Source: Hydractinia symbiolongicarpus | Lineage: Eukaryota | DNA: 64,000 nt | Direction: 5' to 3' | Assembly (NCBI RefSeq): GCF_029227915.1 | Contig: NC_079879.1 | Coordinates: 12,132,720 to 12,196,719 of the forward strand | Shown here: one piece after another, positions 3,152 to 59,782 of the stretch | Position numbering within the stretch: the first letter of the stretch is position 1 | How the letters are laid out: each line of letters begins with the position of its first letter | Program-made: the position numbers and the translations under genes | Notes under the pieces: generated by a model | Database searches by the model: none | Told to the model about the DNA's origin: nothing | What the model saw: only the letters and a program-made list of their open reading frames with translations

Positions 3152-3176
3152 AATTTTACACAAAAAACTATGGAGT

Positions 3177-28950: not shown

Positions 28951-29055
28951 AGTGGTGAAAGCAAAGATGACACAGCACCAACAATAGATGAACTTGTTGC
29001 GATGGAAAACATTGATATTTTATCCTACATGGCTTTTGAAGATAAGTCAAAAATT
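28951..29055 (+). CDS. PARP4: PARP4 exon 33
   Basis: SGESKDDTAPTIDELVAMENIDILSYMAFEDKSKI, compared with human PKVSELIAKEDVDFLPYMSW. gtgagt donor. Confidence 0.75.
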
Positions 29056-29349
29056 GTGAGTCTCTACATTAATAATACCTGTATTCTGTCTGTCCTCTAA
29101 AAGAAGTTCAGGCTAACTGTGCACGAAATCTTCAACCTACAAATAACAAATAGCAATTATAATTTTACCAACTTTAACACTTCCATATAGTAGTTTCATT
29201 TTTATGGATAACCGATTTAAGTTTTTCTCCGCCTTGACATGCCGGCGAAGGAACCACCAGAGTACGTTGACAAAGGCCCTTTTAGATTAAAAAGGGGGGT
29301 GTTGAGTTTTGAAGGTCTCTTCTCGACCTTTTTCTCTTCTTAATTTGTA

Positions 29350-34027: not shown

Positions 34028-34172
34028 TAGTGTTAGTATTCCTCCGATATCTCCAGAGCTCAAAGAAATGGTTTTGAATCAACAAACTGGAAGTGCAGTT
34101 GATGAAGTTGGTGATAGTGTTAATGATGATATGAGTACAATGAAGCCAGCAAAAGTTACTCATGGATACAGG
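34028..34172 (+). CDS. PARP4: Candidate downstream PARP4 exon
   Basis: SSVSIPPISPELKEMVLNQQTGSAVDEVGDSVNDDMSTMKPAKVTHGYR. The phase is compatible with the previous candidate. gtatgt donor. Confidence 0.35.
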
Positions 34173-34389: not shown

Positions 34390-34423
34390 AGTCTTGAAGA
34401 TGTCAGTCAACCATCAATGAAGG
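34390..34423 (+). CDS. PARP4: Weak candidate micro-exon just before the tandem array
   Basis: SLEDVSQPSMK. ag acceptor and gtaggc donor. It is short and unsupported. Confidence 0.2.
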
Positions 34424-34539
34424 GTAGGCTTAGTCGTCATTTTGTGCCAGGCCTATTACACATGTAAAATAATGTTGAGGAGAATCTCCTCCCACCTGTA
34501 TTACCATTTTTAAATCATGACAGAGATGCCTTCTCTGCA

Positions 34540-37500
34540 CCATCATTTTCGTTGATCGAGATAACAGCAAAACATAATACAGACTACATTAGGAGCAGGA
34601 ATGATATCACTTTCAAGAATCGATTTTTGTTTCAAAACTTGTTTGGTTTTATTAACATATCATCGGAACAACTCCTTTGTGATCACCTTGTAGCAAAAAT
34701 ACATAAAACAAGTACTTTTTTTAACTACTACAACATGACATTCTGTCATCCCGTTTCAAAATTTAAAGGATTTGTCCCATCACATACATCACTGTACAGT
34801 TACTGATTTGCGTTGGGCATAACTGTTGGGTAATAAAGAATGTTTGAACTTAACATGATCTGAGTTCTTTTTACTGTATTATAGCTTTGTACAATTTTCA
34901 GCCTGTCTACTTTGACAGACATATTTTCCGATACCTTATATATCCTGAACTGTTTCTTTCAGTAGTGAAATTTGTGAGCATCATAGAATATCTTGAAACG
35001 AACTCATTCCAAGTAAAAATCAATTTGATGCCATAGGTTTTCAAATGACGTCACACATGCAGAGAATGGGTCATTTTTACCATGTACAATAAATCTTTAA
35101 ATCTCACATGTACCAATATTTTGACCTAGCTTCTTGGTAGCTTTCTAGCCTGAATACGAAATAATTGTTTTCAACCAGTCAAACGACGTCAAAAACCTGT
35201 TTTTTTTCAAAAACATATCACACAGGATTAAACGGTACATCGATACGATACATTTTTTAACGATGACAAAGACAAAAGAAAAACAAAATATAACCGCCAC
35301 TTCAGGAGGAATAATATCATTTTCAGGAATGAATTGTTTCAAATCTTGCGTGATTTTCTTCCTAGTACTAGCATATCATCGTAACAACTCCTTTGTGATC
35401 ACCTGCTAGCAAAAATACATGACATAAGTACTTATATAACTACTACAACATCTCATCCTGTTTCAAAGTTTAAAGTAATTGCCCCCTCAAGGAATTGCAC
35501 TCATCCCCTGCAAAGTACAAATCTAAACAAAAACATCGCTAGTCGAAATGGTATTTAAACGTAACGTTTCTAGTAAATCACATACCTAACAAAAGGTATG
35601 CTTTGCGGCAGGCACTTATGACCCCTCTCCTAGGGTTAATATGTTGTTGTTTTTTAAGCCAGAGGAGGATTCCGAGAGGCCTGTTAACATCATAATTTGT
35701 GAATCATGTTAAAAATTTAATGTGCTAACTGGCTTTCCTGTCAGGTGCTTTTATGTGACATACATTTATTTAGGATTTGGTTTGGCAACTGAGTCCCCTC
35801 AAGTTGTATCGTCCGGCACTGTCAGCAAAGGCAACTATTTCAAAAGATTTATTCAAATTATGAATTCATCCTTCCTTCTCATTCAAATTTATGCCACACA
35901 ATTCTTTTTATCCCCTGCTCTAAAAGAATTTCGAACATTTTGATGAAGAATTTGGAAATACTTTCAATAAGAAGAGTAAAATTTATTTTATTTTTTTCAT
36001 TTTTTTAATTGAAGGTCTGGGTATAATGGCTTGTTTAATAGCTAAATTTTCATTACTGATTTGCATTGGGCATAATTGTTGGGTGATAAAGAATGTTTGA
36101 ACTTAGCAAGATCTCAGTTCTATTTACTGTATTATAGCTGGGCATTTTTCCGTCCGTCTAATGTTGACGAGATATTTTCCGATACCTTATACATCCTGAA
36201 CTGTTTGTTTCAGTAGTGAAGTTTTTGAGCATCATAGAATATCTTGAAACGAATTCATTCCAAGTAAAAGTCAATTTGATGCCCTAGGTTTTCAAATGAC
36301 GTTACACATGCAGAGAATGGGTCATTTTTTCCATGTACAATAAATCTTTATATCTCGCATATACCAATTTCCTGACCTAGCTTCTTAGTTGCTTTTTAGC
36401 CTGAATATAAAAAAATTGTTTTCAACGAGTGAACCGACGTCAATGACAACAGCGAGATCAAGCAAGAAGTCATATCTGCAGGAACCTTTTTTTGCTTTAA
36501 GATGTAAAAACCTGTTTTTTTTTCAAAAACATATCACACTGCATTAAACGGTACATCGATACGATACATTTTTTAACGATGACAAAGACAAAAGAAAAAC
36601 AAAATATAACCGCCACTTCAGGAGGAATAATATCATTTTCAGGAATGAATTGTTTCAAATCTTGCGTGATTTTCTTCCTAGTACTAGCATATCATCGGAA
36701 CAACTCCTTTGTGATCACCTGCTAGCAAAAATACATGACATAAGTACTTTAATAACTACTACAACATCGTGAATTTCTGTCATCCTGTTTCAAAGTTTAA
36801 AGTAATTGCCCCCTCAAGGAATTGCACTCATCCCCTGCAAACTACAAATCTAAACAAAAACGTCGCTAGTCGAAATGGTATTTAAACGTAACGTTTCTAG
36901 TAAATCGCATACCTAACAAAAGGTATGCTTTGCGGCAGGCACTGTATGACCCTTCTCCTAGGGTTAATATGTTGTTGTTTTTTAATATAGAGGAGGATTC
37001 CGAGAGGCCTGTTAACATCATAATTTGTGAACCATGTTAAAACTTTAATGTGCCAACTGGCTTTCCTGTCAGGTGTTTTCTATGTGACATGCATTTATTT
37101 GGGATTTTGTTTTGGAAATGCGGCCCCTCAAATTGCATCGTCCGGCACTGTCAGCAAGGGTAACTATTTTTGTTTTTATTCGAATTATGAATTCATCCTT
37201 CCTTCTCATTCAAATTTATGCCACACTTCTTTTTATCCACTGCTCTAAAAGATTTGCGAACATTTTGATGAAAAGTTTGGAAATACTTTGAACAAGAAGA
37301 GTAAAATTTTTTTTATTTTTTTCATTTTTTTTAATTGAAGGCCTGGGTAAAATGGCATGTTTAATAGCTAAATTTTCATTACTGATTTGCATTGGGCATA
37401 ATTGTTGGGTGATAAAGAATGTTTGAACTTAACAAGATCTCAGTTCTATTTACTGTATTATAGCTGGGCATTTTTCCGTCCGTCTAATGTTGAAGAGATA

Positions 37501-40500
37501 TTTTCCGATACCTTATACATCCTGAACTGTTTGTTTCAGTAGTGAAGTTTTTGAGCATCATAGAATATCTTGAAACGAATTCATTCCAAGTAAAAGTCAA
37601 TTTGATGCCCTAGGTTTTCAAATGACGTTACACATGCAGAGAATGGGTCATTTTTTCCATGTACAATAAATCTTTATATCTCGCATGTACCAATTTCCTG
37701 ACCTAGCTTCTTAGTTGCTTTTTAGCCTGAATATAAAAAAATTGTTTTCAACCAGTGAACCGACGTCAATGACAACAGCGAGATCAAGCAAGAAGTCATA
37801 TCTGCAAGAACCTTTTTTTGCTTTAAGATGTAAAAACCTGTTTTTTTTTCAAAAACATATCACACTGCATTAAACGGTACATCGATACGATACATTTTTT
37901 AACGATGACAAAGACAAAAGAAAAACAAAATATAACCGCCACTTCAGGAGGAATAATATCATTTTCAGGAATCAATTGTTTCAAATCTTGCGTGATTTTC
38001 TTCCTAGTACTAGCATATCATCGGAACAACTCCTTTGTGATCACCTGCTAGCAAAAATACATGACAAAAGTACTTTAATAACTACTACAACATCGTGAAT
38101 TTCTGTCATCCTGTTTCAAAGTTTAAAGTAATTGCCCCCTCAAGGAATTGCACTCATCCCCTGCAAAGTACAAATCTAAACAAAAACATCGCTAGTCGAA
38201 ATGGTATTTAAACGTAACGTTTCTAGTAAATCACATACCTAACAAAAGGTATGCTTGGCGGCAGGCACTGTATGACCCCTCTCCTAGGGTTAATATGTTG
38301 TTGTTTTTTAATCCAGAGGAGGATTCCGAGAGGCCTGTTAACATCATAATTTGTGAACCATGTTAAAACTTTAATGTGCCAACTGGCTTTCCTGTCAGGT
38401 GCTTTCTATGTGACATGCATTTATTTGGGATTTTGTTTTGGAAATGCGGCCCCTCAAATTGCATCGTCCGGCACTGTCAGGAAGGGTAACTATTTTTGTT
38501 TTTATTCAAATTATGAATTCATCCTTCCTTCTCATTCAAATTTATGCCACACTTCTTTTTATCCACTGCTCTGAAAGATTTGCGAACATTTTGATGAAAA
38601 GTTTGGAAATACTTTGAACAAGAAGAGTAAAATTTTTTTTATTTTTTTCATTTTTTTTAATTGAAGGCCTGGGTAAAATGGCATGTTTAATAGCTAAATT
38701 TTCATTACTGATTTGCATTGGGCATAATTGTTGGGTGATAAAGAATGTTTGAACTTAACAAGATCTCAGTTCTATTTACTGTATTATAGCTGGGCATTTT
38801 TCCGTCCGTCTAATGTTGAAGAGATATTTTCCGATACCTTATACATCCTGAACTGTTTGTTTAAGTAGTGAAGTTTTTGAGCATCATAGAATATCTTGAA
38901 ACGAATTCATTCCAAGTAAAAGTCAATTTGATGCCCTAGGTTTTCAAATGACGTTACACATGCAGAGAATGGGTCATTTTTTCCATGTACAATAAATCTT
39001 TATATCTCGCATGTACCAATTTCCTGACCTAGCTTCTTAGTTGCTTTTTAGCCTGAATATAAAAAAATTGTTTTCAACCAGTGAAACGACGTCAATGACA
39101 ACAGCGAGATCAAACAAGAAGTCATATCTGCAAGAACCTTTTTTTGCTTTAAGATGTAAAAACCTGTTTTTTTTCAAAAACATATCACACTGCATTAAAC
39201 GGTTCATCGGTACGATACATTTTTTAACGATGACAAAGACAAAAGAAAAACAAAATATAACCGCCACTTCAGGAGGAATAATATCATTTTCAGGAATGAA
39301 TTGTTTCAAATCTTGCGTGATTATTTTCTTAGTGCTAGCATATCATCGGAACAACTGCTTTGTGATCACCTGCTTGCAAAAATACATGAAATAAGTACTT
39401 ATATAACTACTACAACATCGTGAATTTCTGTCATCCCGTTTCAAAGTTTGAAGTAATTGTCCCCTCAAAGAATGGCACTCATCCCCTGCAAAGTACAAAT
39501 CTAAACAAAAACGTCGCTAGTCGAAATGGTATTTAAACGTAACGTTTCTAGTAAATCGCATACCTAACAAAAGGTATGCTTTGCGGCAGGCACTGTATGA
39601 CCCTTCTCCTAGGGTTAATATGTTGTTGTTTTTTAATATAGAGGAGGATTCCGAGAGGCCTGTTAACATCATAATTTGTGAACCATGTTAAAACTTTAAT
39701 GTGCCAACTGGCTTTCCTGTCAGGTGCTTTCTATGTGACATGCATTTATTTAGGATTTTGTTTTGGAAATGCGGCCCCTCAAATTGCATCGTCCGGCACT
39801 GTCAGCAAGGGTAACTATTTTTGTTTTTATTCGAATTATGAATTCATCCTTCCTTCTCATTCAAATTTATGCCACACTTCTTTTTATCCACTGCTCTAAA
39901 AGATTTGCGAACATTTTGATGAAAAGTTTGGAAATACTTTGAACAAGAAGAGTAAAATTTTTTTTATTTTTTTCATTTTTTTTAATTGAAGGCCTGGGTA
40001 AAATGGCATGTTTAATAGCTAAATTTTCATTACTGATTTGCATTGGGCATAATTGCTGGGTGATAAAGAATGTTTGAACTTAACAAGATCTCAGTTCTAT
40101 TTACTGTATTATAGCTGGGCATTTTTCCGTCCGTCTAATGTTGAAGAGATATTTTGCGATACCTTATACATCCTGAACTGTTTGTTTCAGTAGTGAAGTT
40201 TTTGAGCATCATAGAATATCTTGAAACGAATTCATTCCAATTAAAAGTCAATTTGATGCCCTAGGTTTTCAAATGACGTTACACATGCAGAGAATGGGTC
40301 ATTTTTTCCATGTACAATAAATCTTTATATCTCGCATGTACCAATTTCCTGACCTAGCTTCTTAGTTGCTTTTTAGCCTGAATATAAAAAAATTGTTTTC
40401 AACCAGTGAAACGAGGTCAATGACAACAGCGAGATCAAACAAGAAGTCATATCTGCAAGAACCTTTTTTTTGCTTTAAGATGTAAAAACCTGTTTTTTTT

Positions 40501-43500
40501 CAAAAACATATCACACTGCATTAAACGGTACATCGATACGATACATTTTTTAACGATGACAAAGACAAAAGAAAAACAAAATATAACCGCCACTTGAGGA
40601 GGAATAATATCATTTTCAGGAATGAATTGTTTCAAATCTTGCGTGATTATTTTCTTAGTGCTAGCATATCATCGGAACAACTGCTTTGTGATCACCTGCT
40701 TGCAAAAATACATGAAATAAGTACTTATATAACTACTACAACATCGTGAATTTCTGTCATCCCGTTTCAAAGTTTAAAGTAATTGCCCCCTCAAGGAATT
40801 GCACTCATCCCTTGCAAACTACAAATAAACGTAACGTTTCTAGTAAATCGCATACCTAACAAAAGGTATGCTTTGCGGCAGGCACTGTATGACCCTTCTC
40901 CTAGGGTTAATATGTTGTTGTTTTTTAATATAGAGGAGGATTCCGAGAGGCCTGTTAACATCATAATTTGTGAACCATGTTAAAACTTTAATGTGCCAAC
41001 TGGCTTTCCTGTCAGGTGTTTTCTATGTGACATGCATTTATTTGGGATTTTGTTTTGGAAATGCGGCCCCTCAAATTGCATCGTCCGGCACTGTCAGCAA
41101 GGGTAACTATTTTTGTTTTTATTCGAATTATGAATTCATCCTTCCTTCTCATTCAAATTTATGCCACACTTCTTTTTATCCACTGCTCTAAAAGATTTGC
41201 GAACATTTTGATGAAAAGTTTGGAAATACTTTGAACAAGAAGAGTAAAATTTTTTTTATTTTTTTCATTTTTTTTAATTGAAGGCCTGGGTAAAATGGCA
41301 TGTTTAATAGCTAAATTTTCATTACTGATTTGCATTGGGCATAATTGTTGGGTGATAAAGAATGTTTGAACTTAACAAGATCTCAGTTCTATTTACTGTA
41401 TATAGCTGGGCATTTTTCCGTCCGTCTAATGTTGAAGAGATATTTTCCGATACCTTATACATCCTGAACTGTTTGTTTCAGTAGTGAAGTTTTTGAGCAT
41501 CATAGAATATCTTGAAACGAATTCATTCCAAGTAAAAGTCAATTTGATGCCCTAGGTTTTCAAATGACGTTACACATGCAGAGAATGGGTCATTTTTTCC
41601 ATGTACAATAAATCTTTATATCTCGCATGTACCAATTTCCTGACCTAGCTTCTTAGTTGCTTTTTAGCCTGAATATAAAAAAATTGTTTTCAACCAGTGA
41701 AACGAGGTCAATGACAACAGCGAGATCAAACAAGAAGTCATATCTGCAAGAACCTTTTTTTGCTTTAAGATGTAAAAACCTGTTTTTTTTCAAAAACATA
41801 TCACACTGCATTAAACGGTACATCGATACGATACATTTTTTAACGATGACAAAGACAAAAGAAAAACAAAATATAACCGCCACTTGAGGAGGAATAATAT
41901 CATTTTCAGGAATGAATTGTTTCAAATCTTGCGTGATTATTTTCTTAGTGCTAGCATATCATCGGAACAACTGCTTTGTGATCACCTGCTTGCAAAAATA
42001 CATGAAATAAGTACTTATATAACTACTACAACATCGTGAATTTCTGTCATCCCGTTTCAAAGTTTAAAGTAATTGCCCCCTCAAGGAATTGCACTCATCC
42101 CTTGCAAACTACAAATCTAAACAAAAACGTCGCTAGTCGAAATGGTATTTAAACGTAACGTTTCTAGTAAATCACATACCTAACAAAAGGTATGCTTGGC
42201 GGCAAGCACTGTATGACCCCTCTCCTAGGGTTAATATGTTGTTGTTTTTTAATCCAGAGGAGGATTCCGAGAGGCCTGTTAACATCATAATTTGTGAACC
42301 ATGTTAAAACTTTAATGTGCCAACTGGCTTTCCTGTCAGGTGCTTTCTATGTGACATGCATTTATTTAGGATTTTGTTTTGGAAATGCGGCCCCTCAAAT
42401 TGCATCGTCCGGCACTGTCAGCAAGGGTAACTATTTTTGTTTTTATTCGAATTATGAATTCATCCTTCCTTCTCATTCAAATTTATGCCACACTTCTTTT
42501 TATCCACTGCTCTAAAAGATTTGCGAACATTTTGATGAAAAGTTTGGAAATACTTTGAACAAGAAGAGTAAAATTTTTTTTATTTTTTTCATTTTTTTTA
42601 ATTGAAGGCCTGGGTAAAATGGCATGTTTAATAGCTAAATTTTCATTACTGATTTGCATTGGGCATAATTGCTGGGTGATAAAGAATGTTTGAACTTAAC
42701 AAGATCTCAGTTCTATTTACTGTATTATAGCTGGGCATTTTTCCGTCCGTCTAATGTTGAAGAGATATTTTGCGATACCTTATACATCCTGAACTGTTTG
42801 TTTCAGTAGTGAAGTTTTTGAGCATCATAGAATATCTTGAAACGAATTCATTCCAATTAAAAGTCAATTTGATGCCCTAGGTTTTCAAATGACGTTACAC
42901 ATGCAGAGAATGGGTCATTTTTTCCATGTACAATAAATCTTTATATCTCGCATGTACCAATTTCCTGACCTAGCTTCTTAGTAGCTTTCCAGCCTGAATA
43001 TAAAAAAATTGTTTTCAACCAGTGAAACGACGTCAATGACAACAGTAAGATAAAACAAGAAGTCATATCTGCAAGAATCTTTTTTTGCTTTAAGATGTAA
43101 AAACCTGTTTTTTTCTTCAAAAACATATCACACAGGATTAAACGGTGCATTAGTGCGACACATTATTTAACGCTAACAAAGACCAAAGAAAAACAAAATA
43201 TAACCGCCACTTAGAGGAGAAATAATATCATTTTTAGGAATCAATTGTTTCAAATCTTGCGTGATTTTCTTCCTAGTGCTAGCATATCATCGGAACAACT
43301 CCTTTGTGATCACCTGCTAGCAAAAATACATGACATAAGTACTTATATAACTACTACAACATCGTGAATTTCTGTCATCCGGTTTCAAAGTTTAAAGTAA
43401 TTGCCCCCTCAAGGAATTGCACTCATCCCCTGCAAAGTACAATTCTAAACAAAAACGTCGCTAGTCGAAATGGTATTTAAACGTAACGTTTCTAGTAAAT

Positions 43501-46500
43501 CACATACCTAACAAAAGGTATGCTTGGCGGCAGGCACTGTATGACCCCTCTCCTAGGGTTCATGTGTTGTTGTTTTTTAATCCAGAGGAGGATTCCGAGA
43601 GGCCTGATAACATCATAATTTGTGAACCATGTTAAAACTTTAATGTGCCAACTGGCTTTCCTGTCAGGTGCTTTCTATGTGACATGCATTTATTTAGGAT
43701 TTTGTTTTGGAACTGTGGCCCCTCAAGTTGCATCGTCCGGCACTGTCAGCAAGGGTAACTATTTTAGTTTTTATTCGAATTGTGAATTCATCCTTCCTTC
43801 TCATTCAAATTTATGCCACACTTCTTTTTATCCCCTGCTCTAAAAGAATTGCGAACATTTTGATGAAAAGTTTGGAAATACTTTGAACAAGAAGAGTAAA
43901 ATTTATCTTATTTTTTTCATTTTTTTTAATTGAAGGTCTGGGTAAAATGGCATGTTTAATAGCTAAATTTTCATTACTGATTTGCATTGGGTATAATTGT
44001 TGGGTGATAAAGAATGTTTGAACTTAACAGGACGTCAGTTCTATTTACTGTATTATAGCTGGGCATTTTTCCGTCCGTTTAATGTTGAAGACATATTTTC
44101 CGGTACCTTATACATCCTGAACTGTTTGTTTCAGTAGTGAAGTTTTTGAGCATCATAGAATATCTTGAAACGAACTCATTCCAAGTAAAAGTCAATTTGA
44201 TGCCCTAGGTTTTCAAATGACGTTACACATGCAGAGAATGGGTCATTTTTTCCATGTACAATAAATCTTTATATCTCGCATGTACCAATTTCCTGACTTA
44301 GTTTCTTAGTAGCTTTCCAGCCTGAATATAAAAAAATTGTTTTCAACCAGTGAAACGACGTCAATGACAACAGTAAGATAAAACAAGAAGTCATATCTGC
44401 AAGAATCTTTTTTTGCTTTAAGATGTAAAAACCTGTTTTTTTCTTCAAAAACATATCACACAAGATTAAACGGTACATCAGTGCGATACATTATTTAACG
44501 CTGACAAAGACAAAAGAAAAACAAAATATAAATGCCACTTAGAGGAGAAATAATATCATTTTCAGGAATCAATTTTTGTTTCAAATTTTGCGTGATTTTA
44601 TTCCTAGTACTAGAATATCATCGGAACAATTCCTTTGTGACCATCTGCTAGCAAAAATACATGAAATAAGTACTTATATAACTACTACAACATCGTGACA
44701 TTCTGTCATCCCGTTTCAAAGTTTGAAGTAATTGTCCCCTCAAAGAATGGCACTCATCCCCTGCAAACTACAAATCTAAACAAAAACGTCGCTAGTCGAA
44801 ATGGTATTTAAACGTAACGTTTCTAGTAAATCACATACCTAACAAAAGGTATGCTTTGCGGCAGGCACTGTATGACCCTTCTCCTAGGGTTAATATGTTG
44901 TTGTTTTTTAATATAGAGGAGGATTCCGAGAGGCCTGTTAACATCATAATTTGTGAACCATGTTAAAACTTTAATGTGCCAACTGGCTTCTCTGTCAGGT
45001 GCTTTCTATGTGACATGCATTTATTTAGGATTTTGTTTTGGAAATGTGGCCCCTCAAATTGCATCGTCCGGCACTGTCAGCAAGGGTAACTATTTTAGAT
45101 TTTATTCGAATTATGAATTCATCCTTCCTTCTCATTCAAATTTATGCCACACTTCTTTTTATCCACTGCTCTAAAAGAATTGCGAACATTTTGATGAAAA
45201 GTTTGGAAATACTTTGAACAAGAAGAGTGAAATTTATTTTATTTTTTTAATTTTTTTTAATTGAAGGTCTGGGTAAAATGGCATGTTTAATAGCTAAATT
45301 TTCATTACCGATTTGCATTGGGCATAATTGTTGGGTGATAAAGAATGTTTGAACTTAACAGGATCTCAGTTCTATTTACTGTATTATAGCTGGGCATTTT
45401 TCCGTCCGTCTAATGTTGAAGACATATTTTCCGATACCTTATACATCCTGAACTGTTTGTTTCAGTAGTGAAGTTTTTGAGCATCATAGAATATCTTGAA
45501 ACGAACTCATTCCAAGTAAAAGTCAATTTGATGCCCTAGGTTTTCAATTGACGTTACACATGCAGAGAATGGGTCAATTTTTCCATGTACAATAAATCTT
45601 TATATCTCGCATGTACCAATTTCCTGACCTAGCTTCTTAGTAGCTTTCTAGTCTGAATATAAAAAAATTGTTTTCAACCAGTGAAACGACGTCAATGACA
45701 ACAGTAAGATAAAACAAGAAGTCATATCTGCAAGAATCTTTTTTTGCTTTATGATGTAAAAACCTGTTTTTTTCTTCAAAAACATATCACACAGGATTAA
45801 ACGGTACATTAGTGCGACACATTATTTAACGCTGACAAAGACAAAAGAAAAACAAAATATAACCGCCACTTAGAGGAGAAATAATATCATTTTCAGGAAT
45901 CAATTTTTGTTTCAAATTTTGCGTGATTTTATTCCTAGTACTAGAATATCATCGGAACAACTCCTTTGTGACCACCTGCTAGCAAAAATACATGAAATAA
46001 GTACTTATATAACTACTACAACATCGTGACATTCTGTCATCCCGTTTCAAAGTTTGAAGTAATTGTCCCCTCAAAGAATGACACTCATCCCCTGCAAAGT
46101 ACAAATCTAAACAAAAACGTCGCTAGTCGAAATGGTATTTAAACGTAACGTTTCTAGTAAATCACATACCTAACAAAAGGTATGCTTGGCGGCAGGCACT
46201 GTATGACCCCTCTCCTAGGGTTAATATGTTGTTGTTTTTTAATCCAGAGGAGGATTCCGAGAGGCCTGTTAACATCATAATTTGTGAACCATGTTAAAAC
46301 TTTAATGTGCCAACTGGCTTTTCTGTCAGGTGCTTTCTATGTGACATGCATTTATTTAGGATTTTGTTTTGGAAATGTGGCCCCTCAAATTGCATCGTCC
46401 GGCACTGTCAGCAAGGGTAACTATTTTAGATTTTATTCGAATTATGAATTCATCCTTCCTTCTCATTCAAATTTATGCCACACTTCTTTTTATCCACTGC

Positions 46501-49500
46501 TCTAAAAGAATTGCGAACATTTTGATGAAAAGTTTGGAAATAGTTTGAACAAGAAGAGTGAAATTTATTTTATTTTTTTAATTTTTTTTAATTGAAGGTC
46601 TGGGTAAAATGGCATGTTTAATAGCTAAATTTTCATTACCGATTTGCATTGGGCATAATTGTTGGGTGATAAAGAATGTTTGAACTTAACAGGATCTCAG
46701 TTCTATTTACTGTATTATAGCTGGGCATTTTTCCGTCCGTCTAATGTTGAAGACATATTTTCCGATACCTTATACATCCTGAACTGTTTGTTTCAGTAGT
46801 GAAGTTTTTGAGCATCATAGAATATCTTGAAACGAACTCATTCCAAGTAAAAGTCAATTTGATGCCCTAGGTTTTCAATTGACGTTACACATGCAGAGAA
46901 TGGGTCAATTTTTCCATGTACAATAAATCTCTATATCTCGCATGTACCAATTTCCTGACCTAGCTTCTTAGTAGCTTTCTAGCCTGAATATAAAAAAATT
47001 GTTTTCAACCAGTGAAACGACGTCAATGACAACAGTAAGATAAAACAAGAAGTCATATCTGCAAGAATCTTTTTTTGCTTTAAGATGTAAAAACCTGTTT
47101 TTTTCTTCAAAAACATATCACACAGGATTAAACGGTACATTAGTGCGACACATTATTTAACGCTGACAAAGACAAAAGAAAACAAAATATAACCGCTACT
47201 TAGAGGAGAAATAATATCATTTTCAGGAATCAATTTTTGTTTCAAATTTTGCGTGATTTTATTCCTAGTACTAGAATATCATCGGAACAACTCCTTTGTG
47301 ACCACCTGCTAGCAAAAATACATGACATAAGTATTTTTATAACTACTACAACATCGTGACATTCTGTCATCCCGTTTCAAAGTTTGAAGTAATTGTCCCC
47401 TTAAAGAATGACACTCATCCCCTGCAAAGTACAAATCTAAACAAAAACGTCGCTAGTCGAAATGGTATATAAACGTAACGTTTCTAGTAAATCACATACC
47501 TATCAAAAGGTATGCTTGGCGGCAGGCACTGTATGACCCCTCTCCTAGGGTTAATATGTTGTTGTTTTTTAATCCAGAGGAGGATTCCGAGAGGCCTGTT
47601 AACATCATAATTTGTGAACCATGTTAAAACTTTAATGTGCCAACTGGCTTTTCTGTCAGGTGCTTTCTATGTGACATGCATTTATTTAGGATTTTGTTTT
47701 GGAAATGTGGCCCCTCAAATTGCATCGTCCGGCACTGTCAGCAAGGGTAACTATTTTAGATTTTATTCGAATTATGAATTCATCCTTCCTTCTCATTCAA
47801 ATTTATGCCACACTTCTTTTTATCCACTGCTCTAAAAGAATTGCGAACTTTTTGATGAAAAGTTTGGAAATACTTTAAACAAGAAGAGTAAAATTTATTT
47901 TATTTTTTTAATTTTTTTTAATTGAAGGTCTGGGTAAAATGGCATGTTTAATAGCTATAATTTCATTACCGATTTGCATTGGGCATAATTGTTGGGTGAT
48001 AAAGAATGTTTGAACTTAACAGGATCTCAGTTCTATTTACTGTATTATAGCTGGGCATTTTTCCGTCCGTCTAATGTTGAAGACATATTTTCCGATACCT
48101 TATACATCCTGAACTGTTTGTTTCAGTAGTGAAGTTTTTGAGCATCATAGAATATCTTGAAACGAACTCATTCCAAGTAAAAGTCAATTTGATGCCCTAG
48201 GTTTTCAAATGACGTTACACGTGCAGAGAATGGGTCAATTTTTCCATGTACAATAAATCTTTATATCTCGCATGTACCAATTTCCTGACCTAGCTTCTTA
48301 GTAGCTTTCTAGCCTGAATATAAAAAAATTGTTTTCAACCATTGAAACGACGTCAATGACAACAGCGAGATAAAACAAGAAGTCATATCTGCAAGAATCT
48401 TTTTTTGTTTCAAGATGTAAAAACCTGTTTTTTATCAAAAACATATCACACAGGATTAAACGGTACATCAGTGCGATACATTATTTAACGCTGACAAAGA
48501 CAAAAGAAAAACAAAATATAACTGCCACTTAAAGGAGAAATAATATCATTTTCAGGAATCAATTTTTGTTTCAAATTTTGCGTGATTTTATTTCTAGTAC
48601 TAGAATATCATCGGATCAACTTCTTTGTGACCACCTGCTAGCAAAAATACATGAAATAAGTATTTTTATAACTACTACAACATCGTGACATTCTGTCATC
48701 CCGTTTCAAAGTTTGAAGTAATTGTCCCCTCAAAGAATGACACTCATCCCCTGCAAAGTACAAATCTGAACAAAAACGTCGCTAGTCGAAATGGTATTTA
48801 AACAAAACGTTTCTACTAAATCACATACCTAACAAAAGGTATGCTTGGCGGCAAGCACTGTATGACCCCTCTCCTAGGGTTCATGTGTTGTTGTTTTTTA
48901 ATCCAGCGGAGGATTCCGAGATGCCTGTTAACATCATAATTTGTGCACCATGTTAAAAATTTAATGTGCCAACTGGCTTACCTGTCAGGTGCTTTTATGT
49001 GACATACATTTATTTCGCATTTGGTTGTTTCGGAACTGTGGCCCCTCAAGTTGCATCGTCCGGCACTGTCAGCAAGGGTAACTATGTTAAAAGTTTTTAT
49101 TCGAATTATGAATTCATCATTCTTTCTCCTCATTCAATTTTATGCCACACTACTTTTTTACCCTAGCTCTAAAGGAATTGCCAATATTATGATGAAAAAT
49201 GTGGAAATTCTTTGAATAAGGAGAGTAATATTTACCTTCTTTTTTTAATTTTTTAAATTGAAAGTCTGAACCAAATTTTCATTACTGATTTGCATTGGGC
49301 AGAACTGTTGGGTGATAAAGAAAGTTTGAACTTAACAGGATCTCAGTTCTATTTACTGTGTTATAGCTTGGCATTTTTCCGTCCGTCTAATTTTGAAGAC
49401 ATATTTTCCGATACCTTATAAATCCTGAACTGTTTGTTTCAATAGTGAAATTTGTGAGCATCATAGAATATCTTTAAACTATCTCATTCCAAGTAAAAGT

Positions 49501-52500
49501 CAATTTGATGCCCTAGGTTTTCAAATGACGTTACACATGCAGAGAATGGGTCATTTTTTCCATATACAATAAATCTTTATATCTCGCATGTACCAATTTC
49601 CTGACCTAACTTCTTAGTAGCTTTCTAGCCTGAATATAAAAAAATTGTTTTCAACCAGTGGAACGACGTCAATGACAACAGCGAGATAAAACAAGAAGTC
49701 GTATCTGCAAGAATCTTTTTTTGCTTTAAGATGTAAAAACCTGTTTTTTTCATCAAAAACATATCACACAGCATTAAACGGTACATCGGTACGATAGATT
49801 TTTTAACGCTGACAAAGACAAAAGAAAAACAAAATATAACCGCCACTTAGAGGAGAAATAATATTACTTTCAGGAATCAATTGTTTCAAATCTTGCGTGA
49901 TTATTTTCCTAGTGCTAGCATATCATCGGAACAACTGCTTTGTGATCACCTGCTTGCAAAAATACATGAAATAAGTACTTATATAACTACTACAACATCG
50001 TGAATTTCTGTCATTCTGTTTCAAAATTTAAAGTAATTGCACCCTCAAGGAATTGCACTCATCCCCTGCAAAGTACAAATCTAAACAAAAACGTCGCTAG
50101 TCGAAGTGGTATTTAAACAAAACGTTTCTACTAAATCACATACCTAACAAAAGGTATGCTTGGCGGCAGGCACTGTATGACCCCTCTCCTAGGGTTAACG
50201 TGTTGTTCTTTTTTAATCCAGAGGAGTATTCCGAGAGGCCTGTTAACATCATAATTTGTGAACCATGTTAAAAATTTAATGTGCCAACTGGATTTCCTGT
50301 CATGTGCTTTTATGTGACATACACTTATTTAGGATTTGGTTTTGGAACTGTGGCCCCTCAAATTGCATCGGGCGGCACTCTCAGCATGGGTAACTATTTC
50401 AAAAGTTTTTATTCCAATTATGATTTGATCCTTCCTTCTCATTTATTTTTTTAATTTTTTTTAATTGAAGGTCTGGGTAAAATGGCATGTTTAATAGCTA
50501 AATTTTCATTATTGATTTGCATTGGGCATAATTGTTGGGTGATAAAGAAAGTTTGAACTTAACAGGATCTCAGTTCTATTTACTGTATTATAGCTGGGCA
50601 TTTTTCCGTCCGGCTAATGTTGAAGACATATTTTCCGATATCTTTTATATCCTGAACTATTTGTTTCAGTAGTGAAATTTTTGAGCATCATAGAATTTCT
50701 TGAAGCGAACTCATTCCAACTAAAAAGCAATTTGATGCCATAGGTTTTCCAATGACGTCACACATGCAGGGAATGGGTCGTTTTTCTGGTTTTGGAACTA
50801 TGGCCCCTCAAATTGCATCGTCCGGCACTCTCAGCATGGGTAACTATTTCAAAAGTTTTTATTCCAATTATGATTTGATCCTTCCTTCTCATTCAAATTT
50901 ATGCGACACTTCTTTTTATCCACTGCTCTAAAAGAATTTCGAACATTTTGATGAAAAATTTGGAAATACTTTGAATAAGAAGAGTAAAGTTTATTTTATT
51001 TTTTTCATTTTTTAATTGAAGGTCTGGGGACAATGGCATGTTTAATAGCTAAATTTTCATTATTGATTTGCATTGGGCATAATTGTTGGGTGATAAAGAA
51101 TGTTTAAACTTAACAGGATCCCAATTCTACTTACTGTATTATAGCTGGGCATTTTTCCACCCGTCTACTTTTGAAGACATATTTTCCGATACCTTATATA
51201 TCCTGAACTGTTTCTTTCAGTAGTGAAATTTTTGAGCATCATAGAATATCTTGAAACGAACTCATTTCAAGTAAAAATCAAATTGATGCCATAGGTTTTC
51301 CAATGACGTCACACATGTATGGAATGGGTCGTTTTTCTGGTTTTGGAACTATGGCCCCTCAAATTGCATCGTCCGGCACTGTCAGCAAGGGTAACTATTT
51401 TAGTTTTTTTTCGAATTATGAATTCATCCTTCCTTCTCATTCAAATTTATGCCACACTTCTTTTTATCCCCTGCTCTAAAAGAATTGCGAACATTTTGAT
51501 GAAAAGTTTGGAAATACTTTGAATAAGAAGAGTAAAGTTTATTTTATTTTTTTAATTTTTTTTAATTGAAGGTCTGGGTAAAATGGCATGTTTAATAGCT
51601 AAATTTTCATTATTGATTTGCATTGGGCATAATTGTTGGGTGATAAAGAAAGTTTGAACTTAACAGGATCTCAGTTCTATCTACTGTATTATAGCTGGGT
51701 ATTTTTCCGTCCGGCTAATGTTGAAGACATATTTTCCGATACCTTATATATCCTGAACTATTTGTTTCAGTAGTGAAATTTTTGAGCATCATAGAATTTC
51801 TTGAAGTGAACTCATTCCAACTAAAAAGCAATTTGATGCCATAGGTTTTCCAATGACGTCACACATGCAGGGAATGGGTCGTTTTTCTGGTTTTGGAACT
51901 ATGGCCCCTCAAATTGCATCGTTCGGCACTCTCAGCATGGGTAACTATTTCAAAAGTTTTTATTCCAATTATGATTTCATCCTTCCTTCTCATTCAAATT
52001 TATGCGACACTTCTTTTTATCCACTGCTCTAAAAGAATTGCGAACATTTTGATGAAAAGTTTGGAAATACTTTGAATAAGAAGAGTAAAGTTTATTTTAT
52101 TTTTTTCATTTTTTTAATTGAAGGTCTGGGGACAATGGCATGTTTAATAGCTAAATTTTTATTACTGATTTGCATTGGGCATAACTGTTGGGTGATAAAG
52201 AATGTTTAAACTTAACAGGATCTCAATTCTACTTACTGTATTATAGCTGGGCATTTTTCCGCCCGTCTACTTTTGAAGACATATTTTCCGATACCTTATA
52301 TATCCTGAACTGTTTCTTTCAGTAGTGAAATTTTTGAGCATCATAGAATATCTTGAAACGAACTCATTTCAAGTAAAAATCAATTTGATGCCATAGGTTT
52401 TCCAATGACGTCACACATGCATGGAATGGGTCGTTTTTCTGGGTTTGGAACTATGGCCCCTCAAATTGCATCGTCCGGCACTGTCAGCAAGGGTAACTAT

Positions 52501-53750
52501 TTTAGTTTTTTTTTCGAATTATGAATTCATCCTTCCTTCTCATTCAAATTTATGCCACACTTCTTTTTCTCCTCTGCTCTAAAAGAATTGCGAACATTTT
52601 GATGAAAAGTTTGGAAATACTTTGAACAAGAAGATTAAAATTTCTTTTATTTTTCTCATTTTCTTTTATTTGAAGGTCTTGGTAAAATGGCATGTTTAAT
52701 AGCTAAATTTTCATTACTGATTTGCATTGAGCATAATTGTTGGGTGATAAAGAATGTTTGAACTTAACAAGATCTCAGTTCTATTTACTGTATTATAGCT
52801 GGGCATTTTTCCGTCCGTCTAATGTTGAAGACATATTTTCCGATACCTTATACATCCTGAACTGTTTGTTTCAGTAGTGAAGTTTTTGAGCATCATAGAA
52901 TATCTTGAAACGAACTCATTCCAAGTAAAAGTCAATTTGATGCCCTAGATTTTCAAATGACGTTACACATGCAGAGAATGGGTCAATTTTTCCATGTACA
53001 ATAAATCTTTATATCTTGCATGTACCAATTTCCTGACCTAGCTTCTTAGTAGCTTTCTAGCCTGAGTATAAAAAAATTGTTTTCAACCAGTGAAACGACG
53101 TCAATGACAACTGCAAGATAAAACAAGAAGTCATATCTGCAAGAACTTTTTTTGTTTCAAGATGTAAAAACCTGTTTTTTATCAAAAACATATCACACAG
53201 CATTAAACGGTACATCGGTACGATACATTTTTTAACGCTGACAAAGACAAAAGAAAAACAAAATATAACCGCCACTTGAGGAGGAATAATATCATTTTCA
53301 GGAATCAATTGTTTCAAATCTTGCGTGATTTTATTTCAGTGCTAGCATATCATCGGAACAACTGCTTTGTGATCACTTGCTAGCAAAAATACATGAAATA
53401 AGTACTTATATAACTACTACAACATCGTGACATCCCGTTTCAAAGTTTGAAGTAATTGTCCCCTCAAAGAATGGCACTAATCCCCTGCGAAGTACAAATC
53501 TAAACAAAAACGTCGCTAGTCGAAATGGTATTTAAACAAAACGTTTCTACTAAATCACATACCTAACAAAAGGTATGCTTGGTGTAAAGTGCGGCAGGCA
53601 CTGTATGACCCCTTTTCTAGGGTTAATGTATTGGGGTTTTTTAATCCAGATGAGGATTCCGAGAGGCCTGTTAACATCATAATTTGTGAACCATGTTAAA
53701 AATTTAATTTGCCAACTGGCTTTCTTGTCAGTTGTTTTTTTTTCTCAGGA
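34540..53750. repeat. Large satellite-like tandem array with a unit of about 1.33 kb, about 14 near-full units plus truncated variants of about 550 bp, with higher-order structure
   Basis: The conserved 73-aa ORF MNHVKTLMCQ recurs at 37027, 38353, 39678, 40970, 42294, 43622, 44953, 46284 and 47614, a period of 1325-1331 bp. Diverged edge units sit at 34540-36000 and 48900-50300. Short units lie at about 50340, 50795, 51335, 51885 and 52440. Confidence 0.95.
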
Positions 53751-55500
53751 CACGCAATGATAGTAATTATTACTGAAGTGTACATCCGGTGTAAGTATTC
53801 ATGATAAGTAAATGAATAAATAAATAAATGAATAAATAAATTAATAAATGTGACATAACATTTCTTTAGTGTTTGGTTTTGGAACTAAGTCCCCTTAAGT
53901 TGCATCTTCCAGCTCTGTCGGCCAAGGTGGCTATGTTTAAAGTTTTTATTTGAAGTATGAGCTCATGCCTCCTCATCATTTATTGTCACACCACTTTTTA
54001 TCCACTACTCTGAGGGGAATGCCAATTTCTTTTTTATAAAAAAGAGGAAATTCGTTGAATAAAGGCACTAATATTTACCTTCATTTTCCTTTTTAAATGC
54101 TTGATCTGATAAGCCGCAGACCCTGTATGACCCCTGTGCCTGTTATAATTGTATTAATGTGTTTCTTTTAATCCAAAGGAGTGCTTCTATTCCAAGAGGC
54201 CTATGAACATAATTTTTTATGAATCATGTTCAAATTTTAATGTAACAAATGGTTTTCCTATCAGATGCTATTATGTGACATAACACCTATTTAGGATTTG
54301 GTTTTTGAGCTGTGTCCTCTCAAATTGGACCTTCCAGCTCTGTCGGCCAAGGTAACTGTGTTAAAAGTTTATATTTGAATTATGAATTCATTCCTTCTTC
54401 TTTTCATTCATTTATATCCCACACTATTTTTATCCACTGCTCTAAAAAGAATGCCAAGATTTGATAAAAAATTTAGAAATTCTTGGAATAAGAAAAGTGA
54501 TATTTACCTTGTTGTTGTTTTTTTCATTTTTTAATTGAAGGTCTAATAATAATGGTATGTTTACTAGCGCAATTTCGATTGGGCATAAACATTTGGTGAG
54601 AAAGGATGTTTTAACTTAACAGGATATCAGTTCTCTTCTCTGTATTATTTTGATAATACATTTTCTCATACCTACTTTATTCTTAACTATTTATGCTTTA
54701 GTAACTATGTTGAAAGTATTTCTTTAAATTATAAATTCATCCCTTTCTCATTTTATTCATTTACATGCCACACCACTTTTTATTCACTTCTATAGAAGGA
54801 ATACCTACATGTTTATGGAAAATTTTATATTATTTAGGGACTATGTTTTTTGTTTTAGCTTTTAAAAAAACTGTAGAAAAGCCCTTCTCTCCTACATTTC
54901 AGAAAGGAATCATAGATATTTTACCTAACATTGAGTTATATATTCCTGAGTTATGAACGGTCTATTTACACAGAATCTTCTTTTTCAAAAAAATATTTGC
55001 TTCCAGAACTGAAATCGACTTAAATATCCTTTAGTCATATTTTTGGAATGTTAACTCTTCATCGTGAAAAAATTCCAAATTAATTATCCTATTCCAGTAG
55101 GTCTGTTAACAGAATTTTCCCTCAATTTTCTTCTCAATTAATAAATAGCGAAATATTATTACGAACATTGTCCGTCGATAACAATAGCCTGAAATAAACT
55201 CGCTTGTTCATGACATGATAATATCTTAATTATTCAATGACAATGACTGGACAGATAGGTGGTAATATATTTTTAAAGAGTTTTCCCTTTACCATTTTTA
55301 AACATTAGGATTCTGAATTTAACAACTGATTTTCATATTAGGTGCTTGTATGTGACATAACTTTTATTTAGTATTTGATTTTGAAACTTCATCCTCCAAA
55401 GTAGCATTCTCTGCGTCTGACCACCAAGGCAACTATGTTAAAAGGATTATTTAAATTATAAATTCATCCCTTCCTCGCTTTATTCATGCCACACCACTTT
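53750..55500. repeat. Highly diverged relatives of the array unit at the 3' edge of the array
   Basis: Segments at about 53870, 54290 and 55370 keep the motif gtgacata...tatttaggatttggtttt...gaac...cctc.aa.ttg.a.c.tcc.gc.ctgtc.gcca.gg.aactat.ttaaaag at only about 70% identity. Confidence 0.6.
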
Positions 55501-57918
55501 TTTTATTCACTATTATAGATGAATACCTACAGTTTATAGAAAATAAGTTTATAGAAAAGCCCTTTTTTCCTACAATTTCGGAAAGAAATCATAAATATTC
55601 TACCTAATATTGCGCCTTGTAATACCCTATTAGCCCATCTATACATGTGACTTATGAGATCCTTTTGCCATTTTTTTTTTGAATGTTTACATGTTATTGT
55701 ATCCTTAAATTAAAAAAATTGTGTGTTCTTCTGCAAAGTACTCTTTTATTTAACTTTATTTGATACTTCATTGCAACAGAAGACTCATGATCAACAGCAT
55801 GTTTAATATACCGCAGGTGTTTCCTTTTCATTTAACAAAATTTAAAAAACATGATTGAAATCATCAGGTAAAATAATTATTAGCCGAATGTCTTAAATTC
55901 GTTCAAAAAAAGGACATATCCATTTAACTCATAAAATTACATAGTTTATATTGCTAAAAAATGAATGTAATTTGATCTTGGTTGATAAGAATAAAATTGC
56001 GTGTCTTACTTTGACATCAATCGAATATATTGATCTAGTCACGTGTTATTGAAAACATTTTATAATGACGATTTATGTTCGACTCTTATTTACGAATTTT
56101 TAGAAATCAAGGGTGTTCTCGTAAGAGACAGTTTTTTTTAACAAAAGAAATGACTATTGGTAAATTAAAGTTATTGTGGCTACCAGATCAACATTGTATT
56201 CTTTCATATTTGTTGATGTCTGTTGTATGCGTAGGTGGTATATTTAAACCTAGTTAATCCAACACTTTTCCCATCTTATTTTACTCCGCTTTTTTTTGCA
56301 ACACTTTTTTTTTGGATATTAATTTGTAATTTATCAGCATTCTCTTCCATTTGCATACAAATACACTGTAACAGTTACTACAACATTTTTATATTTTTAT
56401 CACATTCTTGTATTGCTGTGCACCAATGCTTCTGTACTTCACCTCACATTGATAGTAGTAGTACTTTCGAATCTCCTACAAAGCATATACTTCAACCAGC
56501 CTTATGTAGATTTACATGTTAAAATTTACTGCGATTTCAAGTTTACTGCTACCGCAAGTTTATTTAGATGACGGAGAATTGCATTCTAAAGAAATAAAAA
56601 AGAACATGAGAGAAAAAGAGAATTTTTTTTCAGGTAGTTGTATATTTTTGAAAAGTTAAGTCATGAGAATACGTAGGATATGAAATGGAAATCTGTTGTT
56701 CGTACTTAAGCGGTGGTGGTGTTTGTTGTGTTATACTCGAACCTAGTTCATTCCTTATTTTTTTCTCCGTTTCATTTTGCATCAATGTTTTTCCTAGCAA
56801 CATTTGTTTTTTAAATATTTGTTTGCAGTCCATAAGAATTTAATACATTCTTTTTTGCATTACGTGCATATTCTATTTATGAGTTACAACAGTTTTTATA
56901 TCTTTCTATCACCTATGTACCAATGCTTTTGTTCTTACACTTAGCATTGATATCTTTCAGTACTTTCGAATTTCCTACATGGTATAAACTTCAACAGGCC
57001 ATATGTGGATTTGCATGATATGGTTTTCACTTATTCTAAAGATGATCAGTGTTATGAATACATGAAGTCTGTGGCTAAAAAACAGGAAAAGGTAATGTTT
57101 CGCTCTATGTTGCTGGGGCATTCGATTACTTTAAAATGCATTAAGTTTGAAGGGCGTTCGTGGAGATTAATTTTGCGAATTAGACAAAAAGGGCCGACAC
57201 AACATTATATAATAGGAAATTTGTTATTGGGAACGAGCAACACGAAGAAAGTCTTACGCGACATTTATTGTTGCTAGTTTAAATAAAATCCGCGAAGTTA
57301 CATCCTCTTAAGTAACAATTAAAATTTTTAGTCTCTTGTGACCCACTAATCGTTTAGAATGGTTCTTGGCAAACCTCCAATGTACTATCTGAAGATGAAA
57401 CAATCCGCTTCAAAAAGATATGCTCTCAAATAGGACTACCCTGCGCAGGTACTATTTTAATATTTCTTTTACGAAAATTTTTTAGATCTTAAAGATAGTT
57501 AATGTTGTTTTCTAATCGCCTTTTGTGCACCTGTACTTTGATCCTCCTCCTTATTCAACCATTTCGCCTAAGTGTGAGAAATTTTAGACAAATGATTTAG
57601 AATAAACATTTTTAAAATGGGAAAGAAACACGGCACAAAATTAAAAATGTCACTGTCTTTCCTTTATTTGTTTTTTGTATTGTCCTCATGGATGGATTTT
57701 GTAAATTAACAGTTTTCAAGGGAACTTATTTAGCGAAAGTAAGCGACCCCTACTTAGACTTCGGATTCTTGGATAGCAGTTAAAAAAGATGAGTTTTAAT
57801 TTCTGGCCAAATTAAAAGCTGAACTAAGTACTAGGTGTGATGTTATTGTCAAGTTTGACGTGTTTTTATGTTCAATGCACAATGTTTTGAATGGGGGTTT
57901 TCCAGTTTGGTATAACTT

Positions 57919-58359
57919 TTGACCAAAAATGATATTAAGTGTCAAAACATTAGAATATTGATGTCAAAAAACCATAAATTTTGTTCCCCGTTCGATTCGG
58001 ATTGCATCGCTATTTTCACTTCTTTTTCAGACTCGAAATTTATTACAGAAGTGGAGGACTACATATTAACCATCATTATATGCATTCTTCTTAAAATCAT
58101 GTGTTTCAACGTGGATACCAGTGAGGGGAATTCTCACTTAAGTTATCCTTGGTCACACCCATTCTACATTCGACAAGCCAGTCAACTGTCTTTACCTACG
58201 CCTTTGACACATGAGCTCGACCAGATTTTCCTATCTGCTATGCAATTTATTTTACAAGGGGATAAAAAGTTTCCTTTGATGTACACACATTGTCATATGG
58301 GATATAGTTTTGATGAGATGGTGTTGGAAATCTGTCGCAGATCAGTCGCAATTCCTTGA
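57919..58359 (+). CDS. Orphan 146-aa ORF (a hypothetical protein, or chance)
   Basis: It is the longest uninterrupted ORF outside the known genes, which is unusual in AT-rich DNA. It has no recognisable domain. No splice context was identified. Confidence 0.2.
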   Translation: MTKNDIKCQNIRILMSKNHKFCSPFDSDCIAIFTSFSDSKFITEVEDYILTIIICILLKIMCFNVDTSEGNSHLSYPWSHPFYIRQASQLSLPTPLTHELDQIFLSAMQFILQGDKKFPLMYTHCHMGYSFDEMVLEICRRSVAIP

Positions 58360-59782
58360 TTTAAAGCACCTAACAACACAGGGTTTCCATGCCACCTTAC
58401 AACTTCTCAAATCTCCTTAAATTCAAAAGGTCTCCTCAATTTTTCTTAAATATCCTCAATTTTTTATGAAATTTACGTTTTCTCATATCTCCTCAAAGAA
58501 ATTTTGACATTTGTTTTTTTATATATATGCTAGTTTTTATATTATTTATTTTGTATTACCAAAATGTGTGGTTGTTGTGGCCTGCAAACATTACTTTTCT
58601 GTTGTCTTGTAATTGCAGCAAAGTTTCTTAATTACATTTTGTAAGAAAATATTGAGATGCCAGTCTGTGTGTTCCTTCATTTTTACAAGTGCCAGTTTTT
58701 CTCATCAAATCTTCTCAATTTTGTTTTGAAAGAAGAATGGAAACCCTGCAAAAGATCTGCCAAAAACATTATCGCATCTATTAGACAAAAAATCAATTGT
58801 TATTTTTTATAATTTGAAATTTTTTGCAATTAGTACAAAAAACGACCAATCCATTTTTTTCTTTTATAAGTTAGGAAGTTAGGGGTTATTTATTTGGAGG
58901 TGAGCGGGTTTGAATTTGCCGGGCGTACTTAGTCAGACACCACATGCGTGATGTCTCTCTTAGAGGCGCAAATCTAAGTAATGAAAACAATATGGGCGTA
59001 GAAGCACCAACACTTTGACGCTCACAAATTCCAACTTATAATAGAGTTTTTATCATTCATTTTATACTACTTGCCTGGGCATTAAACTTATTTTACAACA
59101 TCTTCTCGATGCTAAGTTTGTTAATGATTTTTACAGGCTTTAAATGCACTCTGTTACACCTTTACCAGTCTCTTTTTAATTGGACTGGATTGTCCGCTGT
59201 AGCAGAAGGTTATTTTTGTAAATGCCTGAGCACTTTGACAAAATAAGAGACTTTATCCAAGTGCCCACACGTCAACAAAAAACCTTTTAAAATATAGCGA
59301 AAAATGCCGTCAAATGAAAATGAGTCTTTGCCCTAGCTTTAGGCCTATTCCTGTATGATTTAAGGATGTATTAAAAATGAATTTTATCTTTTATTATTGT
59401 TGTTTTTTAGATGTTGTGATAAATATGTTTTATTATTGCCCTATTTTTACTTTTGTAATACGCGCTTTATTACACTATTAGTTTACTTATATTCATTATA
59501 TAACTAGTTTATTACAAAATTATTTTCTAATTCGATTTGCTCAACCAAATAGCCTAAAGGGGGGGGGGGGGTTTCACGAAAATAATTGAACAGCGAAATG
59601 TATCTGAGCATGCGCAATTTTATTTTGTTTTTATTTTGCTTTAAAAAAATCGCTTTGCCGAAAAATAGAAACGGTTTTTACTTTTTAGCGGCAAAATATT
59701 TCGCTAAAAAAAATTTCAACCAATCAGAGAACACCATATGCATTGTTTTTTTTATAGAAACTCATTACTGGAACGAACCTAT

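Follow-up and report, generated by a model that had tools for sequence, protein, structure and literature searches.

The 64,000-nucleotide stretch of Hydractinia symbiolongicarpus DNA analysed here (part of contig NC_079879.1, hereafter the window) carries a tandem array of ~21 kb at 34549-55612 on the + strand, decayed edges included. The sequence favours, with a probability of roughly 0.78, a neutral, non-coding array of the large-unit (macrosatellite) type, which would have grown and been homogenised by unequal exchange and gene conversion between two convergent genes. Two of the features by which macrosatellites are recognised, a head-to-tail unit of at least ~1 kb and a length of tens of kilobases, are present. 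The structure of the array, a copy phylogeny that follows position, the mosaic composition of the units and the absence of a detectable gene from them were all observed directly.

Extent and organisation of the array

One unit of 1331 bp (45296-46626) was used as a blastn query against the window. Matches were confined to 34559-54648 and to the + strand. A profile of the unit (nhmmer) recovered decayed remnants over the wider range 34549-55525, and self-blast placed the right edge at ~55612. The limits given in a preliminary description of this stretch (34540-55500) were therefore essentially right. Neither the profile nor self-blast found copies of the unit in the other 43 kb of the window. 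The arrangement is strictly head to tail, with all copies on the same strand, and the array can be phased into 17 units: 13 long ones of ~1.33 kb (U01-U12 and U17, 1227-1335 bp) and four short ones (U13-U16). The preliminary count of about 14 units missed this composition, as there are 13 long units and the four 551-bp units at 50500-52704 had been overlooked. The period of 1325-1331 bp reported at the same time holds for the start-to-start spacing of most units, but not at units with deletions, where spacings of 1251, 1291, 1316 and 1227 bp were found. Tandem Repeats Finder (TRF) was run with a period limit of 500, which leaves it blind to the 1.33-kb unit and informative on shorter internal periods only; its one call inside the array is an (ATAA)n microsatellite. 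No direct repeat longer than 25 nt was found within the unit.

Read from left to right, the array begins with a decayed fragment (34549-34782, unit positions ~532-772, 79% identity) that is fused directly to unit position 10 of U01. The latter (34800-36043, 1244 bp) is a diverged long unit, 92-93% identical to the central units, which is without unit positions ~401-462 (~62 bp) and contains a perfect TGACGTCA. Then follow subfamily A (U02-U06, 36044-42636), in which U05 (40021-41312) has a deletion of ~35 bp, a unit that is mosaic between subfamilies (U07, 42637-43964) and subfamily B (U08-U10, 43965-47956). U11 and U12 (47957-50499) are diverged long units, 91-95% identical to the core, and U12 is without unit positions ~1173-1273 (~100 bp). 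They are succeeded by the deletion-derivative units U13-U16 (50500-52704, each 550-552 bp), which retain unit positions 1-286 and 1071-1331 and every one of which has a perfect TGACGTCA. The last long unit, U17 (52705-54094), is broken by the (ATAA)n microsatellite (53804-53849, 11.5 copies) between unit positions ~1041 and 1044. Over its full length U17 shares ~91% identity with the other units, whereas over the first 286 bp it reaches 98.3% with the central units, a difference suggestive of a conversion tract. The right edge (54108-55612) is decayed and locally re-duplicated; its fragments, of 70-83% identity, align with unit positions 883-1324, 17-92, 1116-1233 and 1003-1211. Diverged copies had been reported on both flanks, and this is borne out by the decayed fragments at either edge and by the peripheral units, which are 89-94% identical to the rest.

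Subfamilies are mosaic and follow position

Mutual identity is 97.7-99.1% in subfamily A and 97.3-98.9% in subfamily B, but ~95% between the two, so that a previous estimate of at least 97% for the central copies applies within subfamilies and not between them. U07 shares 95.5-96.7% identity with either subfamily. Every unit differs from every other, with 99.1% identity in the closest pair. Alignment of the units and a copy phylogeny, proposed earlier as a check, yielded a neighbour-joining tree in which units group by position: (U02,U03), (U04,U05,U06), U07 and then (U08,(U09,U10)), with long branches leading to U01, U11, U12 and U17. Two subfamilies in blocks had indeed been described, but the marker strings assigned to them are found in fewer units than was claimed, exact occurrences being limited to 3 units for aacagcgagatcaaacaag, 4 units for aacagtaagataaaacaag, and 4 and 2 units for two long markers.

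The 76 informative sites across U02-U10 reveal that the units are mosaic. A variant block GTTAT (positions 869-950) is common to U02, U04, U05 and U08, a second block GTAG (positions 780-797) is common to U04 and U08-U11/U17, and several blocks span the boundary between subfamilies A and B. U07 changes between A-like and B-like sequence along its length: it starts with 286 bp that match U05 at every position and resembles subfamily B at positions 347-584 and 1083-1304. The long units are therefore best described as positional blocks with mosaic sharing of variants, with no strict higher-order period.

Higher-order structure, which would place units k apart closer to one another than neighbours are, had been suggested for the array as a whole. 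It is not found among the long units and is restricted to the short block, where k = 2: pairwise identity is 98.3% between U13 and U15 and 97.6% between U14 and U16, compared with 92.3% between neighbouring short units. The short block is therefore a duplication of a 1.1-kb dimer.

The positional tree, the long branches at the edges, the mosaic blocks and a deletion variant amplified in place all support the earlier suggestion of expansion by unequal crossing-over. For CpG, the observed/expected ratio of 0.72 in the array compares with 0.69 upstream. Variability is slightly higher at CpG sites than at others (33% vs 22%) and the transition/transversion ratio is ~1, none of which is informative.

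The differences between units also bear on whether the array could be an artefact of assembly, through false expansion or collapse. The chromosome-level assembly of H. symbiolongicarpus was built from HiFi reads with an N50 of 13.2 kb at 66x (PMC10411563); if the window comes from that assembly, the 21-kb array exceeds the read N50, and arrays beyond read length are error-prone. However, the closest pair of units differs at almost one position in a hundred, and the ordered substitutions and indels, the distinct deletion subfamily and the decayed edges are not expected from artefactual duplication. Since no two units are identical, such HiFi reads could resolve the array. We consider an artefact barely credible; the exact copy number could be wrong.

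Short units and the question of a mobile origin

Relative to the long units, the short units are missing an internal 785 bp (segment B); they can be viewed as segment A alone, and the long units as a combination of segments A and B. When the junctions were read directly, segment B was found to begin with CCATGTACAATAAATC and to finish with TTTATTTAGGATTTT. The A/B junction has T-run microhomology only, and no clean target-site duplication was found at the junction of segment B. In pairwise alignment, identity between the short units and the corresponding part of the long units is ~91-92%, and it is this value that stands, a figure of ~83% from the multiple alignment being an alignment artefact. 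Since parts of segment B are present in the oldest edge fragments, it is probably the long form that is ancestral, with the short form derived from it by deletion. Deletion within a long unit is thus favoured over insertion of segment B as the source of the short units, though not proven.

The same pattern of A versus A plus B could also be explained by a 785-bp element inserted into a 550-bp monomer. This would fit an origin from a transposable element, whether a non-autonomous (Helitron-like) element amplified in tandem or one copy of a dispersed repeat family. There is precedent in the same genome, where Helitron-like and IS3EU-like derivatives build huge tandem arrays and unclassified repeats are abundant (PMC11934779). 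However, no remnant of a transposase, Rep or helicase was found in the six frames (Pfam), there was no protein match, and the unit has no internal periodicity of 372, ~150 or 182 bp. Moreover, terminal inverted repeats were found neither at the array borders nor around segment B, no target-site duplication is clear, and the sole hairpin-plus-CTRR candidate has a 7-bp stem and CTAG, without a TC after it, which is at chance level. As the window outside the array (43 kb) contains no further copy, and deletion is likelier than insertion given the segment B remnants in the oldest edge fragments, a transposable-element origin appears unlikely.

Nor is there support for a tandem derived from a long-terminal-repeat retrotransposon. 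Neither a primer-binding site nor a polypurine tract was seen in segment B, and A-A-A-A runs are atypical of such a tandem, this being a weak test made by inspection only.

The unit contains no detectable gene

All six frames of the unit are interrupted by stop codons and none matched a Pfam domain (0 matches, E up to 0.1). In a recurrent open reading frame (ORF) of 73 amino acids, variable sites number 24, 26 and 24 at the three codon positions, hence there is no codon-position bias. When every unit ORF of 38 amino acids or more was joined into one query of 969 amino acids, no match was found among 5.8 billion proteins, and PARP4-like matches inside the array were absent below E = 0.09. Ten ORFs from the window were also looked up exactly in the protein collection and none was present. 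The broken frames and the lack of third-position bias are not those of an array of repeated exons or protein domains, and the previous view of the unit as non-coding (based on short ORFs that differ between copies) is upheld by the Pfam search, the codon positions and the protein search alike. Scans for exact 35-mers and 25-mers in JGI metagenome contigs, and a further scan of viral sequences, returned nothing, a weak negative as these collections are poor in animal DNA.

Tandem arrays of non-coding RNA (ncRNA) genes are known from Hydractinia, comprising tRNA, U1/U2/U5/U6, U3 and rRNA genes (PMC11067881), and the array resembles them in its even spacing, near-identical units and comparable period. 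The size of the unit would thus be consistent with a tandem set of an undescribed ncRNA gene or a promoter module. In addition, each unit carries one cAMP-response-element (CRE)-like TGACGT(C/T)A (17 in the array vs 6 elsewhere in the window), which in the short units sits beside CCAAT, ~50 bp downstream of the most invariant 25-mer. However, no ncRNA gene could be detected in the 1.33-kb unit. Rfam gave 0 matches to the array at the gathering threshold and no credible family even at E up to 10, where the only matches, snoZ40 and mir-2059, were in a single copy each and at chance level; no tRNA was found with ARAGORN. The best hairpin (46184-46275, -30.3 kcal/mol) was rejected as a structured RNA, its z-score being -2.17 with 9 of 200 shuffles folding as well, and it shows no compensatory changes, the linked variants within it not being compensatory. 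Conservation along the unit is fairly even (0.83-0.99 per 50-bp window). Taken together, these results make an ncRNA or promoter set very improbable.

The CRE-like motif and the palindrome AAACGTAACGTTT were both noted previously in every unit. Both are present, yet as copies of a single occurrence, and the palindrome is in 10 units only. They recur because the unit recurs, and their number says nothing about function. On the + strand, every long unit has one AATAAA signal. A functional array, acting as a battery of promoter-like modules (CCAAT and a CRE-like site, downstream of the invariant 25-mer), as a source of an undescribed ncRNA or of PIWI-interacting RNA by analogy with the ncRNA gene arrays particular to Hydractinia, or as a chromatin boundary between the PARP4-like and coadhesin-like genes described below, is improbable, and we infer that the array is without sequence-specific function.

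Some observations weigh against a neutral tandem array. Conservation is not perfectly flat: the least variable positions are 149-390 and 970-1030, and a 25-mer at positions 184-208 is found with at most 2 mismatches in 16 of the 17 units, and exactly in 13. Such stretches may be due to constraint or simply to past conversion. Furthermore, were the unit dispersed beyond the 64-kb window, an origin from a mobile element would gain in likelihood.

A model for the evolution of the array

The mosaic units and the less homogenised ends of the array point to repeated unequal exchange and gene conversion, a mechanism that we infer from established models of satellite evolution. On such a model, a 1.33-kb piece of non-coding DNA would have been duplicated head to tail. 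Out-of-register recombination (unequal exchange between sister chromatids or homologues) together with gene conversion would then alter the copy number and keep the central copies alike, whilst copies at the edges would join in exchange less often and decay. One unit may have lost its internal 785 bp, after which the 551-bp variant would have been amplified in place, latterly as a dimer. Any effect of the array would come from its bulk and position, for instance by separating the convergent genes as a spacer or chromatin block, or by supplying polyadenylation signals.

Relation to known tandem repeats

Tandem repeats defined by TRF make up 15.7% of the H. symbiolongicarpus assembly and are mostly unclassified (PMC11067881). 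Three families, HSymSHlR (372 bp, Helitron-like), HSymSR (~150 bp) and HSymIS3EUlR (182 bp), account for 30% of the genome; they occupy subtelomeres and putative centromeres, significantly farther from genes than transposable elements in general (PMC11934779). The array shares with these families its genome and its make-up of tandem non-coding DNA. It differs from them in unit length, in lacking any of their periods and in being flanked by genes, the comparison being one of unit length, period and location. With none of the known periods and no ncRNA gene, it represents a separate repeat, though one of the same broad type.

Outside Hydractinia, the closest likeness is to human macrosatellites such as DXZ4 and D4Z4, with which the array has in common a kilobase-scale unit, a head-to-tail arrangement, a length of tens of kilobases and a position adjacent to genes, and it is non-coding as some of them are (PMC2588610). 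The 1.33-kb unit is at the small end of their range and there is no sequence relationship. The chromatin features of DXZ4 include CTCF binding. A similar centre, decayed edges, subfamilies in blocks and one dimeric sub-block are reminiscent of satellites of the alpha-satellite type and of the euchromatic satellites of Tribolium (PMC4675708). However, the unit here is ~8 times nucleosome-sized, the long units have no strict higher-order period and the window contains one array. A satellite of this kind inside a gene was initially regarded as unusual. That view does not hold, given that 15.7% of the assembly is tandem repeats (PMC11067881) and that human large-unit arrays lie near or in genes, several of them being wholly intronic (Warburton et al. 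2008, PMC2588610).

On its own the array matters little, being one more large-unit repeat in an assembly of which about a sixth is tandemly repeated. It does provide a small, clean and completely resolved example of array evolution, showing homogenisation at the centre, decay at the edges, mosaicism from conversion and amplification of a deletion variant in dimeric form, and it is likely to be a copy-number-variable marker for Hydractinia strains.

Neighbouring genes

Upstream of the array, exons of a PARP4-like gene lie at 10300-29056 (+ strand), supported by homology to VIT, vWA and both the regulatory and the catalytic PARP domains. Among named proteins, PARP4 of Desmophyllum pertusum comes closest (56% identity), in agreement with the earlier identification of this gene as a PARP4 homologue. 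Downstream, the 3′ exons of a coadhesin-like gene lie on the - strand at 61270-63577, with the stop codon at 61270-61272; they match XP_057306541.1 of H. symbiolongicarpus, one exon being 100% identical, which in itself assigns the window to this species. With the PARP4-like gene on the + strand and the coadhesin-like gene on the - strand, the array is therefore situated between two convergent genes. Some 5.7 kb separate its right end from the end of the coadhesin-like gene.

The VIT-vWA protein closest to the PARP4 exons is P0003 (63% identity). It is encoded without introns on a 2.4-Mb contig of an ENA metagenome assembly (ERZ25066847, contig ctg1160), where its neighbours are reverse-transcriptase ORFs and a separate PARP-domain ORF. 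A short tandem repeat past the last homology-supported PARP4 exon (29591-29745; 63-bp period, 2.5 copies, 82% match) looks non-coding.

The preliminary description held that ~500 C-terminal residues of PARP4 were due where the array lies, and suggested that the array may fill a large PARP4 intron or separate the gene from its true 3′ exons. Vertebrate PARP4 does have a long tail after the vWA domain. Moreover, two candidate exons before the array, both on the + strand, look plausible by eye. The first (34028-34172) is followed by a donor GTATGT. The second starts at 34390 and either uses a plausible donor (GTAGGC) at 34423, in which case the exon is 34390-34422 and the donor lies 127 bp before the array, or reads through to a TAA at 34464-34466.

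However, homology does not lead towards the array. The last well-supported PARP4-like exon is at 28689-28847, with a weak continuation at 28975-29040, so that homology to PARP4 ends ~5.5 kb before the array. A search with 87 PARP4 relatives found no PARP4-like exon after 29040, and none beyond the array, at E up to 20; the test is weak, as the tail is poorly conserved and the relatives are mostly partial. The expectation of PARP4 residues at the array finds no support, and the exon described as the last of PARP4 before the array has neither a homologue nor a Pfam match, as is also the case for the other candidate. Two bacterial repeat proteins returned as relatives of the exon at 34029-34172 were spurious, their score having been inflated by weak matches summed over repeats. 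The + strand frames of 55600-61300 gave no Pfam match, and only the ~5.7 kb between the array and the end of the convergent annotated gene would be available for further exons. If the donor at 34423 is unused, the stop is reached 83 bp before the array, and PARP4 could simply end there. An intronic position is accordingly doubtful, and the large-unit array between convergent genes is preferred. The array may be intergenic, part of the PARP4 3′ region or within a last intron.

A Hydractinia PARP4 protein was absent among the matches from the collection of 5.8 billion proteins, the best match being 63% identical. The RefSeq protein of the neighbouring coadhesin-like gene is present, as are its Logan transcripts. 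In H. symbiolongicarpus the annotation of the PARP4-like gene may be missing or wrong, or its expression poor. The array serves as an annotation warning for the 3′ end of this gene, no product of which was found in the protein collection searched, whereas that of its neighbour is there.

Other features of the window

Several smaller repeats are located elsewhere in the window. Inverted repeats of 234 bp (1395-1628 and 3058-3285, 91.9% identical) surround fragments of a MULE-type transposase-like ORF, the match being to P0089 (Pfam PF10551) at 2575-2827. The region 1395-3285 probably represents a degenerate DNA transposon that has kept its terminal inverted repeats. To its left, ORF fragments on the + strand at 467-1161 match a C48 (Ulp1-type) peptidase protein (P0090, PF02902) and are followed by a cysteine-rich PHD-like stretch (CSYRMPY...MVECNKCLEW); together they are probably part of a transposon-associated gene. 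Finally, three pairs of short dispersed repeats of 77-90% identity were found (6510-6695/12861-13035, 10896-11019/33149-33273 and 12702-12769/59779-59846). Two of the pairs are inverted and one is direct. They lie in PARP4 introns and downstream of the array, are unrelated to the 1.33-kb unit and are probably small interspersed elements.

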